DNA from: an uncultured bacterium
Lineage (GTDB): Bacteria; Bacillota_I; Bacilli_A; RF39; UBA660
Direction: 5' to 3'
DNA: 64,000 nucleotides
NCBI GenBank assembly: GCA_945935525.1
Contig: CAMERI010000001.1
Span: forward strand, 227,548-291,547
In this document: positions 51,732 through 61,294 of the stretch, piece by piece
How the letters are laid out: each line of letters opens with the position of its first letter
How positions within the stretch are numbered: the first letter of the stretch is position 1
Program-made: the position numbers and the translations under genes
The notes under the pieces: model-generated
Told to the model about the DNA's origin: nothing
What the model saw: the letters and a program-made list of their open reading frames with translations, nothing else
Databases searched by the model: none

Positions 51732-51777
51732 TGGTGTCCTCGGCACGATTCGAACGTGTGACCGACGGCTTAGAAGG
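51732..51777 (-). repeat. Partial copy of the 3' half of tRNA-Arg (att-site direct repeat of the tRNA at 61218-61294)
   Basis: tggtgtcctcggcacgattcgaacgtgtgaccgacggcttagaagg aligns with the 3' half of the intact tRNA-Arg. The core gaccgacggcttagaagg is identical, and the T-stem changes are compensatory. The expected 5' half is absent. A terminator hairpin (aagcctaaatataaggctt) follows on the minus strand. Confidence 0.7.
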
Positions 51778-51913
51778 TTTTTGATAAAACTCTAGCCATC
51801 GATTTATTACACATCGTTTTTTTGCCTTAAACACTGGGGAAAATAAACATTATTCTTTCTAAAGTTATGTTTTAACAATTAACGGGTGCCGTAAAATGGT
51901 GCCATACCAATTT

Positions 51914-52516
51914 TTAAACACCTTTCAAAATCTTATCAAACATATCTGCACTTTGCTGTTTACTAGCCTCATAAGCATGTGTATATATGTTCATTGTAGT
52001 ATTTGTATTTGAATGTCCTAGTCTTAAACTAACAGCTTTAATATTAACACCATTATCTATTAACAAGCTAGTGCAAGTATGTCTTAATTCATGAAAAGTA
52101 ATTTTAGGTAGATCATATTTTTTAATAATTTGAGAAAGTATATCTGTACAAGTATCTGGATGAATATGAGTACCATATTTTGATGTAAAAATTCTGTTTT
52201 CATTTTTTCACATTCTTCCAAGTTTCTTTTTATAATCATCTTGCCAAGCTTTGTACTCTTTTAATAAATCAATACATACTTGACTGATTATAATCTTTCT
52301 ATTGGAATATGTATTTTTAGCTTTTGATTCATCTACTATTCCATTTACTACTTTTAATCCATTATCAATTAGAATAGTATTATTTTCAAAATCTACATCA
52401 TTCCATTTAAGAGCACATATTTCACTTCTTCTTGCCCCACTATCAATTGCAAGTGTTATTAATGTTCTATATTTAATATTTTCATTTTTCAAGTGATTGT
52501 TCAAATGTGTATCCAT
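51914..52516 (-). pseudogene. int: Tyrosine integrase, N-terminally truncated and frameshifted
   Basis: 102-aa ORF carrying the box I Arg ('SGARRSEICALKW'). The C-terminal catalytic part ('FHELRHTCTSLLIDNGVNIKAVSLRLGHSNTNTTMNIYTHAY') is in a different frame, ending at 51914. No N-terminal arm/core-binding domain is present. Confidence 0.7.
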
Positions 52517-52862
52517 ATAATATATTATCTAATGATCCACTTCCATTAATATCTGAATTATATTCTACAAATTCATTTATATAATCTATTATTTCATTTT
52601 TACGTTCTAATGATGGTGTCTCTAAATAAAATCTTTCTATTAAATTACCATTCATAATTATTACTCCTTTTTTATTTATATGACATTAGGTTGTATCTAT
52701 TATATCATAAAATATTTCTTTTTAGATAGTCTAAAATCATACTGTGCTTATATAAAATTTATTATTAAACCAAACTAATTCAACATAAAAAGAGCAATAA
52801 AATATTTTACTGCTCAAAATATTATAAATTACTTTTTATATATTCTATTTAATCAACAAATA

Positions 52863-54938
52863 TTATTCATCGTAATGAGCTTTAGCAGGAGAAAATTCAT
52901 ACTTTTCACATTTTTCACCATTTAGTGTATATACCTTAGAACAAGTATACTTTTTTATTGCTTTAGGAAAACTATTTTTATAACATTTGGTACCACTTGC
53001 AACAAATCCTTCTTCACATACATACATTCCAACAGCATCAGTAGTTATTGTGGCGTAACACTTTGTACCCTTAAGTACAGTATCATCAGTGCATATATAT
53101 TTACTTGTGGCTGCTATTCCAGTTGTTTTAGCACACTGATTATTAACAGCTATATATCCACTTGGACAAATATATTTTTTCGTAGCAGCTATTGTTGTAT
53201 TAGAAGAAATAACACAATTTCCTTTTCCATCTGATGTTCCTTGAGAACAATAATATGTTTTATTAGCAAAGGTAGTGTAATGGCATAATCCATCGGTATA
53301 ATCATATCTTCCTTGTGCACACCAGTAATAATATGGACTTGCAGTGTGTTCACAAGTTTGGCCTTTTAATGTTCCAGAACTACAAGAATATTTGATAGAA
53401 GCAGCAACTATACTTGGTCTATTTTTTATGCAATTAGTTCCAGATAAATTATAAGAAGAATCAGGACATGAATATTTAACTTCAGCAGAAATATTAGAAA
53501 TGGTAAAACATTGATTTCCAGATGAAATATATCCTTTAGGACAAGAATATACTACAACTGCATCTGCAGATTCAACTTTTTCACATTTAGTATCTTTTAG
53601 TTTAAAACCATCTGCACATTTGTATACAAATTTTGAATCTCTAATATCATTACTTACGCAAATATCACCACTTACACTATAACCATCTTTACAGGTATAT
53701 GTAATTTTAGCATCTACAGAATCTATTGTTTTTTGACATTTATTGTCATCATTCAAAGTATATCCATTTTCACAGTAATAATATCCTTTAACACAGGTTC
53801 CATTTTTATTTATATACCCACTATCACATTTTTTTAAAGAAAAATATCCTTTAAGTATAAGTAAAAATAATAAACAAAGAATTAAAAACAACATTACTAT
53901 TTTTAAAACGAAATTTTCTGCAAAAAAATTTCTTATTTTAATAGCTATTGAACTATTCTTTATTAAATCAAAATAACTATCTTTAATATCATTATTCTTA
54001 ATAGCATCATTATCATATATTCCAATAGTAACAGATGTCAAATCAGATGAAAAATTAATTTTTTTACTAGTATTAGAATATATTTTTATTTTTTCTAAAT
54101 CTTTTCTCATTTTATTAGCACTATCATATCTATTATTATGATTAAATGAACATGCTTTAGTCAAGATACTCATAATTTCATTAGATATTCCATCTATATT
54201 TGGAATTTTTTCACCCGACATTCTAATATCAAATGCCTTCTTTTCATCAATATCAAAACTTACAAATGGAAGATTTCCATTAATCAATTTATACATAACA
54301 AGTCCTAATGAATATATATCAGATGTTGTATTTGGATTTTCACCATTATAAACTTCAGGAGAAATATAATCTAATGTACCAAATCCATTTAAATTATTAT
54401 TTGATGTTGCTATTCCAAAATCTCCAAGTTTATAATTACCTTTTTCATCAATAAATATATTACTAGGCTTAATGTCGTTATGTATAATATTTTTTGAAGA
54501 ACAATATTCTAAAGCTTTACATATATCACTGCCAAGTTTAATTACATCAGTAATTGTAACTTCCTTTTCAGAAAAATATTTAAGTATATCAGTTGCATAT
54601 TCCATAAATATATATATATCATATCCATTTTCTTCTTTTTTACTCTCCTGAAAAAAGTCATAATACTTAATAATATGATCATTATTATCAAGATTTTTCA
54701 TTATTTCAATTTCTTTTTTAATATTTTCAATGATATGCAAATAATAAACATTTATATCATCTTCACTTCTTATGTATCCTTCGGTAAAAAGAAATCTAAT
54801 TTCCTCATCATTTTTTGGTAAACTTATATATTTAACAGCACATACATCTCCATTATTATTTACTGCTCTATATACTTCAGAAAAACCTCCTTCACCTATT
54901 TTTTCATAAATTTTCCAATTTTTAATTTCTTTCTTCAT
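52863..54938 (-). CDS. Hanks-type Ser/Thr protein kinase with a TM segment and an extracellular Cys-pair repeat domain
   Basis: GEGGFSEV...AVK...HNDIKPSNIFID...DFGIAT...YISPEV; TM around residues 340-360; at least 10 repeats of Y-x-C-x2-G-[YF]-x-[LV]-x-G-x2-C. Confidence 0.8.
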   Translation of the reverse strand: MKKEIKNWKIYEKIGEGGFSEVYRAVNNNGDVCAVKYISLPKNDEEIRFLFTEGYIRSEDDINVYYLHIIENIKKEIEIMKNLDNNDHIIKYYDFFQESKKEENGYDIYIFMEYATDILKYFSEKEVTITDVIKLGSDICKALEYCSSKNIIHNDIKPSNIFIDEKGNYKLGDFGIATSNNNLNGFGTLDYISPEVYNGENPNTTSDIYSLGLVMYKLINGNLPFVSFDIDEKKAFDIRMSGEKIPNIDGISNEIMSILTKACSFNHNNRYDSANKMRKDLEKIKIYSNTSKKINFSSDLTSVTIGIYDNDAIKNNDIKDSYFDLIKNSSIAIKIRNFFAENFVLKIVMLFLILCLLFLLILKGYFSLKKCDSGYINKNGTCVKGYYYCENGYTLNDDNKCQKTIDSVDAKITYTCKDGYSVSGDICVSNDIRDSKFVYKCADGFKLKDTKCEKVESADAVVVYSCPKGYISSGNQCFTISNISAEVKYSCPDSSYNLSGTNCIKNRPSIVAASIKYSCSSGTLKGQTCEHTASPYYYWCAQGRYDYTDGLCHYTTFANKTYYCSQGTSDGKGNCVISSNTTIAATKKYICPSGYIAVNNQCAKTTGIAATSKYICTDDTVLKGTKCYATITTDAVGMYVCEEGFVASGTKCYKNSFPKAIKKYTCSKVYTLNGEKCEKYEFSPAKAHYDE

Positions 54939-60105: not shown

Positions 60106-60513
60106 TTATTTTATAACAATTCCATCTAAATTAACATTTCTCATTGTGGGTGAATTATAGTTTTTAGGTAAAACATTTTTTAAAGAGTTATTTTCTTTTT
60201 CTATTAAAGTTAATGCATCATCAATTATTTCTCCAATGTTTGTCTCTTTAGAATGTTCTACTAAAAATTCCCATCTTGCATTTTTAGGTACATAAAAAAT
60301 ATTTTCTGCAGTATAGCAATCTCTTTCCTCTTCTAATCCCGCACCTTCTTCTACAAGTTCTTTGTATTTTTCTTCAAAAGAATCTGATATATATTTTAGA
60401 AATATCAAACCTAATACAATAAATTAATAATCAGATACAGAAACTGCACCTCTCATTTTATCAGCTGCAGCCTATAACTTATCTTCTAACTTTTTCAAAT
60501 CTTGTTCATTCAT
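60106..60513 (-). pseudogene. hsdM: Type I restriction-modification methyltransferase HsdM, N-terminal remnant with two in-frame stop codons
   Basis: Continuous frame MNEQDLKKLEDKL[TAG]AAADKMRGAVSVSDY[TAA]FIVLGLIFLKYISDSFEE...TAENIFYVPKNARWEFL...IDDALTLIEKENNSLKNVLPKNY is HsdM_N. The stops fall where W and K normally are. The ORF ends after about 135 codons, whereas HsdM is roughly 500 aa. Confidence 0.65.
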
Positions 60514-60650
60514 TAATTCTTCACCTCATAATTCAATTCTTATACTAATTATAACATAATTTTACATTTTTTCTTCAAATCTAATATTATTTTATATAAT
60601 TATGAAATGATTTTGACTTTTTGAATTTTTATGATATATTGCTCTTGAAA

Positions 60651-60950
60651 AAAGGAGATGTATTATGAATAAAGAATTAGAAAAATTAACAGATGAAGAA
60701 TTTTTGAATATTATTAAATTTCATAGTGAGCAAGTAAAGTTTATCTTGAAAATGAATTATATGAGTATATTGCTTTTTATATTGCTAAAGGACTTGAATA
60801 TAATGCTATATTTGATGATAACTTTGAAAGAATAGTAAATACTGCTATGAAATCATTTGATTCATTTCAATTTAGGAATAAAATTGATTATGAAAGAATA
60901 AAATCAATACTTAAAAATAAATATCATCTAAAAAAGAGATTTAATTAAAA
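60651..60950 (+). pseudogene. Small frameshifted ORF (MNKELEKLTDEEFLNIIKFHSEQVKFILK / ENELYEYIAFYIAKGLEYNAIFDDNFERIVNTAMKSF...)
   Basis: RBS GGAGATG; the reading frame shifts after about 30 codons and continues for about 65 codons in the +1 frame. Confidence 0.3.
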
Positions 60951-61217
60951 ATCTCTTTTAAATTTTGATGTTTTTTATTAAAAAGTGACATTTTGCATCC
61001 ATTTTTATAATTATAATACACGTTTCTCCCTTTATTTATCGATGATTGCTCTATTTTTAATGGGTGCCCAAAAAGGTGCCGAAAACATCAAAAAGCGCCT
61101 ATAAAAGTGCCAAAAAATGTAATAATTTGTGATAGTTTGTGATAATTAAGAATTTGTATTGAACAAATAAAAAATGCCTTAAACTCAGCATTTATAAGGC
61201 ATTTTTAATTTTTAAAC

Positions 61218-61294
61218 TGGTGTCCTCGAGGCGATTCGAACGCCTGACCGACGGCTTAGAAGGCCGTTGCTCTATCCAGCTGAGCTACGAGGAC
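61218..61294 (-). tRNA. tRNA-Arg (anticodon TCT)
   Basis: GTCCTCGTAGCTCAGCTGGATAGAGCAACGGCCTTCTAAGCCGTCGGTCAGGCGTTCGAATCGCCTCGAGGACACCA: 7-bp acceptor stem, D-arm, anticodon loop CUUCUAA, T-arm GTTCGAATC, encoded CCA. Confidence 0.85.

Follow-up and report, generated by a model that had tools for sequence, protein, structure and literature searches.

What lies between an intact tRNA-Arg(TCT) gene and a displaced copy of its own 3′ half, and how did it get there? The question is raised by a 64,000-nt stretch of the genome of an uncultured bacterium of the RF39 lineage (GenBank assembly GCA_945935525.1, contig CAMERI010000001.1, positions 227,548 to 291,547; hereafter the window), which has ~26% GC and uses the standard genetic code. 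A reading made from the sequence alone had described the interval between the two tRNA copies as a decaying integrative island of roughly 9.5 kb, immobilised and with its cargo retained. Our analysis makes it highly probable that a small tyrosine-integrase element inserted into the tRNA gene and that a foreign block of chromosomal DNA then replaced its interior, leaving an immobilised, chimeric island.

The insertion is recorded in the tRNA gene itself, the parts of which are:
61218..61294, minus strand: chimeric intact tRNA-Arg(TCT), that is, attL (ARAGORN and Rfam; compared with the empty-site tRNA of contig L011 and with related species)
61245..61263, minus strand: 19-nt identity segment of attL, attR and attB, corresponding to tRNA positions 31-49 (anticodon loop, 3′ anticodon stem and variable loop)
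51732..51777, minus strand: attR, the displaced native tRNA-Arg 3′ part, with T stem ACACG/CGTGC (repeat search and empty-site comparison)
51701..51719, minus strand: native tRNA terminator, a terminator-like hairpin kept downstream of the displaced fragment and also present in the empty-site allele

The intact gene is the sole tRNA of the window (ARAGORN and Rfam, 68.8 bits), and a repeat search of the window pairs its 3′ part (61218-61263) with 51732-51777 on the same strand, with 41 of 46 positions (89%) identical. The copy begins with the final base of the anticodon stem's 5′ strand and continues to the CCA. All five differences fall in the T stem, at tRNA positions 50, 51, 63, 64 and 65: from the displaced copy to the intact tRNA, pair 50-64 changes from C-G to G-C and pair 51-63 from A-T to G-C, both compensatory, and the C at position 65 becomes T, so that an A49.C65 mismatch becomes an A-T pair. 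The alignment therefore bears out the repeat structure and T-stem substitutions that the sequence-only reading had reported, as well as its statement that the copy has no 5′ half: none was found upstream of the fragment, and ARAGORN and Rfam call no tRNA there. The 19-mer common to both copies, CCTTCTAAGCCGTCGGTCA, occurs exactly twice in the window, compared with an expectation of 0 from 100 shuffles.

Empty versions of the site were found both within the species and in related ones. Metagenomic contigs were collected through the exact GerM-like protein that adjoins the tRNA gene, and nine of them (L012-L020) contain the 9.5-kb interval, with identities of 99.2-99.85% to that of the window. 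Contig L011, a 1.375-Mb scaffold whose flanks are 99.2-99.6% identical to those of the window, instead has the tRNA gene followed directly by the gene for a 196-aa protein. Its two flank alignments overlap by exactly 46 nt, joining window position 61218 onwards to sequence ending at 51777, and in its tRNA the window's 5′ half continues into a 3′ half of the 51732-51777 type, with terminator and flank unchanged behind it. The site is empty as well in two more contigs of the species, L089 and L090, at 98-99% identity. For related species, a scan of species-representative genomes, which are uncultured gut metagenome-assembled genomes labelled Clostridium sp., Bacilli, Mollicutes or Mycoplasmatota bacterium, gave 15 loci with GerM identities from 96% down to 57%. 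The window's island is absent from all 15. A tRNA-Arg(TCT) gene follows GerM in 14 of them (L036 shows none), and in 10 the order is GerM, tRNA-Arg(TCT) and a homologue of the 196- or 199-aa protein with nothing in between; L033 stops just after the tRNA, L041 stops just after a more distant tRNA, and L038 and L040 are differently arranged. The native ACACG/CGTGC T stem is found in 13 of the 14 related-species tRNAs, the exception being L035.

An unoccupied attB, made up of the host 5′ part and the version of the 3′ part seen in the displaced fragment, is thus present in L011, L089, L090 and 12 related-species loci, and by this comparison the empty state is ancestral. Because the empty-site alleles carry exactly the 51732-51777 version together with the downstream terminator, the residual copy is the original host 3′ end, as had been proposed, and the window's intact tRNA is a chimera of a host 5′ half and a 3′ half that came with the element (T stem AGGCG/CGCCT). 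A three-way comparison of attB, attL and attR further shows that, to the right of the 19-nt segment, attL is element-type and attR host-type, which confines the crossover to tRNA positions 31-49. The displaced fragment lies downstream of the intact tRNA gene in the same orientation, and the identity block begins at the anticodon stem-loop, which places the site in the anticodon-loop class (class A) of attP sublocations. Integrase-type insertion into tRNA-Arg(TCT) is therefore supported by alleles of the same species and of its relatives. The suggestion that the 46-nt match belongs to another, degenerate tRNA gene or is a chance repeat had been raised only as an a priori possibility and is practically negligible, given that the fragment has neither a 5′ half nor a tRNA call, that both copies are fused exactly in the empty-site allele, which refutes membership of another tRNA gene, and that the chance expectation of the 19-mer is 0.

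Several observations concern the site more widely. The A49.C65 mismatch in the T stem is conserved in the clade's native tRNA-Arg(TCT) (12 related-species loci and the conspecific empty-site alleles), and the element-borne 3′ half gives a T stem with full pairing. The tRNA-Arg(TCT) gene is a recurrent hot spot of insertion: a more distant species holds a different insert of 2.9 kb there, before the gene for the 199-aa protein (L035, 10997-13972). That insert has perfect 48-nt flanking repeats, both with an AGGCG-type T stem, contains RHS-toxin-like fragment open reading frames (ORFs), has no integrase, and carries ATGTCACA-type repeats instead of the GGCAC repeats described below; we rejected it as a copy of the same element because its arm repeats and content differ despite the shared site. 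Short GerM contigs (L002-L010) mostly end inside the tRNA gene (window 61252-61285), probably because the assembly graph breaks at the conserved tRNA and the occupied/empty polymorphism, and were not used as evidence.

The larger part of the island is not element DNA. The interval is composed of a captured chromosomal block and, at its two joints, the stumps of two element genes:
52483..60133, minus strand: captured chromosomal block of 7.65 kb, 99.3% identical to the L092-L097 locus and 95-96% identical to L045
60106..60133, minus strand: end of the donor gene for a 281-aa protein (last 8 codons and stop), now the end of the hsdM remnant ORF
60081-60098: terminator of the donor 281-aa gene, following the gene end
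52483..52655, minus strand: 5′ fragment (57 codons) of the donor GNAT gene, cut by the right junction
60134..60513, minus strand: hsdM remnant comprising the HsdM_N domain only (Pfam), cut at ~60134 by the left junction
51914..52482, minus strand: C-terminal ~190 codons of a tyrosine integrase (PF00589, alignment to full-length relatives)

Relatives of the block were reached through homologues of its FHA-ABC protein (L045-L047), with L092-L097 added through a 90% protein cluster. Nucleotide identity to the block is 95% for L045-L047 and 99.2-99.3% over 7,667 nt for L092-L097. In all 24 contigs read for protein P0288 (L092-L097), the block sits in a housekeeping context, in the order Tmk - ThyA - ... 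- FtsW - rplS - lepB - 281-aa gene - DedA - hydrolase - FHA-ABC - kinase - complete 209-aa GNAT - ... - Lon. Homology of the window with this native locus starts at 60133 and ends exactly at 52483, after GNAT codon 57, so that the block takes in 27 nt from the end of the 281-aa gene and 171 nt from the start of the GNAT gene. Thus 7.65 of 9.49 kb (~81%) is a chromosomal segment, framed by ~1.8 kb of dead element. The kinase, FHA-ABC transporter, hydrolase and DedA genes, which the sequence-only reading had taken for retained cargo, are therefore a chromosomal block native to the rplS-lepB locus of another species.

The breakpoints of the block coincide exactly with the points at which hsdM and the integrase gene (int) are truncated, and it follows that replacement by the block truncated both genes. 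Both joints are illegitimate; the right one appears to lie in AAAAATG, a microhomology of ~7 nt common to GNAT and the LKNENIKY-coding stretch of related integrases. A 57-aa ORF upstream of int was considered as a frameshifted integrase N-terminus or as an excisionase (Xis) and was rejected, since it is the 5′ end of the GNAT gene. Of the contigs read, 21 encode an ABC protein identical to that of the window and 22 an identical kinase; all show the island context through both joints, which suggests that those genomes hold a single copy of the block. In L012, the part of the block equivalent to window 54254-59483 is a mosaic, its divergent tracts matching the L045-type allele at 72 of 89 variant sites; this pattern indicates that, since its capture, the block has continued to recombine homologously with related lineages.

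The element genes that frame the block are decaying. The hsdM remnant has lost its N6-methyltransferase domain, and its frame is broken by two stops, an in-frame TAG (60472-60474) and TAA (60424-60426), both of which had been noticed before. Across nine island-bearing sequences compared, the TAA is private to the window strain. At the Trp codon equivalent to 60472-60474, some strains (among L012-L020) have TAG and others TGA, which implies either two independent nonsense mutations or a multi-step change in an already dead gene. Beyond hsdM lies a second leftover:
60665..60948, plus strand: element-derived small ORF, orf94, of 94 aa when intact; a pseudogene here, with a -1 frameshift at ~60739

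The frameshift, likewise described earlier, is of the -1 type relative to the intact 94-aa version of L017 and is shared by the window strain and L001. Most other strains have a different +1 frameshift, and orf94 is intact in only a few (for example L017).

The integrase remnant, like the rest of the gene list in the sequence-only reading, was correctly recognised in all respects but one. It had been called N-terminally truncated and frameshifted, and the truncation stands: the remnant begins at alignment column 203, near residue 140 of integrase P0122, so that ~140 N-terminal residues, including the core- and arm-binding domain, are missing. The frameshift does not, because the ORF (51914-52516) keeps one reading frame, interrupted by a single in-frame TGA (52208-52210) at a conserved Trp, with PF00589 matches on both halves. 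This TGA is confined to the window strain and L056; the codon is TGG in all eight other island-bearing contigs aligned base by base, and every other island-bearing contig has an uninterrupted 200-aa int ORF where the gene lies fully on the contig. Genetic code 4, in which TGA would encode Trp, was rejected as an explanation of the stops, as Trp is encoded by TGG in long ORFs, the two stops of hsdM are TAG and TAA, and the int codon itself reads TGG in other strains. In the alignment the remnant keeps the catalytic R, K, HxxR, H and Y (ARRSE, LKV, HELRHT, GHS and IYTH). A search with the integrase fragments found full-length relatives, including P0140 (54% identical); full-length homologues have 320-333 aa and combine PF14659 with PF00589. 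The interval therefore does contain a tyrosine-recombinase gene, as a pseudogene, and its N-terminus was lost through the replacement, from which it follows that the island cannot move by itself. Together with the absence of an xis gene from the window island and the accumulation of pseudogenes, this upholds the earlier view that the element is immobilised.

Both ends of the island nevertheless keep what may be integrase-binding arms:
51885..51903, minus strand: paired GGCACC-N7-GGCACC repeat in the attR-side arm, immediately behind the stop codon of int
61062..61111, minus strand: attL-side arm with four GGCAC-type repeats (motif search and strain comparison)

The four units on the attL side lie at 61107-61111, 61095-61099 (mutated to GGCGC in the window strain), 61075-61080 and 61062-61068, and are preceded by a tandem ATCACAAA(C/T)T repeat at ~61124-61143. 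As a pair, the GGCAC motif has just two occurrences in the window, at 51885-51903 and 61063-61080, where chance would give 0. In the window element and in that of L021/L023 the pairs lie slightly more than 100 nt from the core on both sides, and the motif is present in every island-bearing locus, in L021-L024 and in L088, and absent from all empty-site loci. These repeats are candidate arm-binding sites of the integrase.

Such conserved ends raise the possibility that the island is not dead, in that the integrase and Xis of a co-resident related element move it in trans, and that the block crossed species in this way. Besides the att core and arm repeats preserved at both ends, this would account for an insertion that is precise at the tRNA and for a block 99.3% identical across species with backbones ~12% apart, and related intact elements do occur in the same habitat. 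We nevertheless regard it as unlikely: all island copies have the same flanks, no second insertion site and no donor-species contig with the chimera were seen, no helper element was identified in the window, and the arm repeat at 61095-61099 is already mutated in the window strain.

What the element looked like before its interior was replaced can be judged from its relatives. The P0140 integrase sits in an intact element (L021/L023) laid out as tRNA-Arg(CCT), ~9.6 kb of cargo, a 56-aa ORF, int and a 46-nt tRNA fragment; the cargo encodes an MmeI/Eco57I-like enzyme, a T5orf172-helicase and GmrSD, and the 56-aa ORF, which has no Pfam match, looks Xis-like in sequence. The window island resembles this element in its target (the tRNA-Arg anticodon loop), its 46-nt repeat, its size of ~9.5 kb, the position of int (co-directional with the tRNA and adjoining the displaced fragment) and the GGCAC pairs on both arms. 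In common with these small defence-gene islands it also has a restriction-modification (R-M) gene, the hsdM remnant, on the attL side. Unlike L021/L023, however, it no longer possesses xis, the 5′ portion of int or the remaining R-M genes, and holds an unrelated envelope/signalling module. The closest integrase relative in IMG/VR is 35% identical, and the gene content of the window island includes no structural, replication or lysis genes, so that a phage origin was rejected and the interval is not a prophage. The description that fits the element best is that of a small integrative island of non-phage type, which would originally have carried a type I R-M system.

Two further observations were made on this family. 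In L021 (1501-1577 and 11131-11176; also L023), the regenerated tRNA has the anticodon CCT and the displaced 46-nt fragment TCT, their sole difference, which reflects either the entry of an attP of one type into the other tRNA-Arg type or a later mutation; if the crossover occurred 5′ of position 34, integration would have changed the anticodon of the tRNA. In another species, L088 (GCA_016295205.1, JAEEGJ010198078.1, 352-1265) is what remains of another member of the family, truncated independently. Still present are 143 C-terminal residues of int (88% nucleotide identity), joined to an unrelated N-terminus at a breakpoint other than the window's, as well as the GGCACC pair and a tRNA fragment of native type whose acceptor stem differs.

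We next consider from where the block was taken. The L092-type 281-aa protein, lepB, FtsW, GNAT and ABC have longest contigs of 728,093 or 662,373 nt, the same two figures as for a pair of GerM variants with only 74% identity to that of the window. The L060-type 281-aa protein (86% identical to that of L045) is on an 808,920-nt contig, the figure recorded for a 99%-identical GerM, and also on a 917,474-nt contig, the figure recorded for a 94%-identical GerM. The L060-type locus encodes the 281-aa protein, a P-loop protein, a NUDIX protein, a 588-aa protein and its own DedA (68% identical) and lacks the hydrolase, ABC and kinase genes. These genes are also missing from the SepF-DivIVA region of the window, where a more distant relative keeps them. 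With L031, whose GerM is likewise 74% identical, as a proxy for the 74%-GerM species, the backbone identity to the window is ~86-88% over most aligned flanks and 93.6% over one short 1-kb stretch. As the block is 99.3% identical and the backbone only ~86-88%, the most economical reading of these sequences is that the block was recently imported into the element from the 74%-GerM species or a very close relative.

Alternatively, the block may have been moved or copied from the rplS-lepB locus of the same species into a resident element, for example by template-switching repair. The divergence of 0.7% between the island block and the L092 block falls within the 0.4-2% seen between conspecific flanks, and L058 shows a window-type allele next to the 281-aa gene. 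Yet the L092-type proteins are placed on contigs with the 74%-identity GerM, the L060-type 281-aa gene, with no block behind it, is placed on a contig with the 99%-identity GerM, and the contig counts per protein agree with that pairing. Because this species assignment is indirect, we keep the intragenomic move as a small residual chance.

In the classical reading, the whole 9.5 kb arrived as one element, the module is its normal cargo, and the missing parts of int and hsdM were lost later. This would fit the position of the module between attL and attR and the one structure common to all island-bearing strains. It is very improbable, given that the block runs collinear, at 99.3% identity, with a segment of chromosome that elsewhere lies among housekeeping genes, holds the ends of neighbouring genes (27 nt of the 281-aa gene and 171 nt of GNAT) and breaks exactly where hsdM and int are truncated, and that related elements carry defence genes rather than a kinase/ABC/hydrolase/DedA module.

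Insertion followed by replacement of the interior is thus our favoured account, and the following points weigh against it. Among the contigs collected there was no strain with the pre-replacement element, no donor strain with the chimera and no intact copy of the exact element (full hsdM ... int), so that the original content was deduced from relatives at 54-64% integrase identity. The species were assigned by matching longest contigs rather than from one directly read contig, and the backbone figure of 86-88% comes from the proxy L031. The ratios of non-synonymous to synonymous substitution rates (dN/dS) given below derive mainly from the mosaic L012 allele, with few substitutions. Finally, GC content, considered as a possible island signal, is uninformative (24.6% in the island and 26.1% in the rest of the window).

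Taken together, the history of the locus was most probably as follows. A small tyrosine-integrase element, which would have been laid out roughly as attP arm - orf94 - hsdM ... (xis) - int - attP arm, entered the chromosome at the tRNA-Arg(TCT) gene, with site-specific recombination taking place inside the 19-nt segment; its own tRNA 3′ copy completed the gene, and the host 3′ part with its terminator was pushed 9,486 bp downstream. The interior, from about codon 125 of hsdM to about codon 140 of int, was then replaced by 7.65 kb of chromosomal DNA that another species of this uncultured gut clade has between the 281-aa gene and GNAT, next to rplS-lepB. This replacement destroyed the N-terminal DNA-binding part of the integrase and the restriction-modification genes, and the truncated hsdM and int, orf94 and the redundant DedA gene are decaying from strain to strain. 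The replacement, which may have preceded or followed arrival in this species, could have come about by capture in the donor and mobilisation in trans, or by an in-situ, microhomology-mediated patch of imported DNA.

Within the block, four genes are complete in the window:
59334..59957, minus strand: DedA/VTT-domain protein, UptA-like but below the cut-off; intact in the window
57511..59202, minus strand: membrane-anchored alpha/beta-hydrolase of 563 aa (Pfam)
54938..57388, minus strand: FHA-FHA-NBD-ABC2 fused exporter of 816 aa (Pfam)
52863..54938, minus strand: Hanks-type Ser/Thr kinase of 691 aa, with a transmembrane segment and a Cys-rich extracellular repeat region

None of the nine island-bearing sequences compared has a disrupted hydrolase, ABC or kinase gene, and a W105* stop disrupts DedA in five of the eight other island strains. 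Relative to the mosaic L012 allele, dN/dS is ~0.09 for the hydrolase, ~0.18 for the ABC, ~0.09 for the kinase and 0.48 for DedA. The hydrolase, FHA-ABC and kinase are thus under purifying selection; the leftovers of the element and DedA, which is redundant with a native DedA, are being lost in one strain after another. The host apparently lacks the three-gene module elsewhere.

The exporter gene comes first and overlaps the kinase gene by 1 nt, the last base of its stop being the first base of the kinase gene. This arrangement, two FHA domains fused to a nucleotide-binding domain (NBD) and an ABC-2 permease next to an overlapping Hanks kinase, resembles PknF-Rv1747 of Mycobacterium tuberculosis, where an ABC exporter with two N-terminal FHA domains lies in an operon with a Hanks-type Ser/Thr kinase and phosphorylation has a positive regulatory effect on the exporter (Spivey et al. 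2011, PMC3138270). The likeness is at the level of domains, with generic domain matches; PDB sequence searches with the ABC and the kinase gave generic NBD and PknB-like matches only. It differs in the large Cys-rich extracellular region of the window kinase and in the membrane hydrolase that accompanies the module. By analogy, the module probably acts as a PknF/Rv1747-like, phospho-regulated envelope exporter. A role of the kinase and ABC as a defence system was rejected, since their PADLOC and NCBIfam matches are to a generic kinase or NBD and below the cut-off: of the anti-phage kinases PD-T4-6, Stk2 and MADS MAD6, the kinase domain alone is matched (105 bits for NCBIfam MAD6, compared with a cut-off of 460), and the partner genes are absent.

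Among the closest known systems are the tDNA islands catalogued by Islander, with attP of class ‘A’ (Hudson, Lau & Williams 2015, PMC4383910; Williams 2002 for the sublocation classes); an anticodon-centred class of attachment sites has been described for such islands (PMC4383910). As in these, the element splits the tRNA gene and restores it, the island is bounded by the intact tDNA at one end and a 3′ fragment in the same orientation at the other and contains a tyrosine recombinase gene, and the crossover interval covers the anticodon loop. The window island differs in that its integrase is reduced to a C-terminal remnant with an in-frame TGA, so that in spite of its intact att sites it does not qualify as ‘putatively active’, and in that ~81% of its interval is chromosomal DNA of another species rather than of the element.

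Illegitimate capture of host DNA by integrative elements, of the kind seen in specialised transduction, has its paradigm in the gal and bio genes of phage lambda. The window island is similar in that host genes would have entered the element through illegitimate recombination at short microhomology and element genes were lost. It is different in keeping both att arms, with the interior replaced, and in that the captured DNA is not adjacent to the attachment site, which means that simple aberrant excision offers no explanation.

Some further features surround the island. Just outside attR (49035-51486, minus strand) lie the genes for the paralogues of 196 and 199 aa, which are 36% identical, have no Pfam match and share conserved Cys and His motifs, and a 402-aa gene. 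These three genes evolve fast, with 25-77% amino acid identity between species compared with 87-95% for the adjacent radical-SAM gene, and vary in copy number across species. Insertion sequences near the locus are strain-specific: an IS110-family transposase is present between the DUF1015 and sigma-factor genes in island strains L013 and L016-L018, and an IS605 OrfB/TnpB gene in the empty-site strain L090 (4473-5627). At the window edge, a 246-aa ORF (63162-63902, minus strand) with three imperfect internal repeats of ~220 nt (66-82% identical) is part of an RsgI_M/PepSY anti-sigma-like protein in related contigs.

The island is of a well-known kind, nicely documented; it holds no surprise for the specialist and leaves current concepts unchallenged. 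The locus is nonetheless an unusually complete natural record of the life cycle of a tRNA-targeting element: one species holds occupied and empty alleles, the crossover is pinned to 19 nt, and decay can be traced by strain. It also shows that genes between attL and attR are not necessarily the cargo of an element, and cautions annotation pipelines and island databases that position alone is no proof of mobility or of cargo origin. One may speculate, although we think it rather improbable, that the chimera is a functioning, integrase-dead ‘hitch-hiker’ which, its att sites being intact, is moved in trans by related tRNA-Arg elements and shuttles the kinase/FHA-ABC/hydrolase module between species of this uncultured gut Bacilli clade; if true, it would be a natural satellite-like integrative element that trades its own genes for housekeeping-type genes of its hosts. 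Independently of this, the locus documents a recent inter-species flow of a kinase-regulated exporter module in uncultured low-GC gut bacteria, and it suggests that the recipient benefits from the hydrolase, ABC and kinase genes, in contrast to the redundant DedA, which is disappearing.

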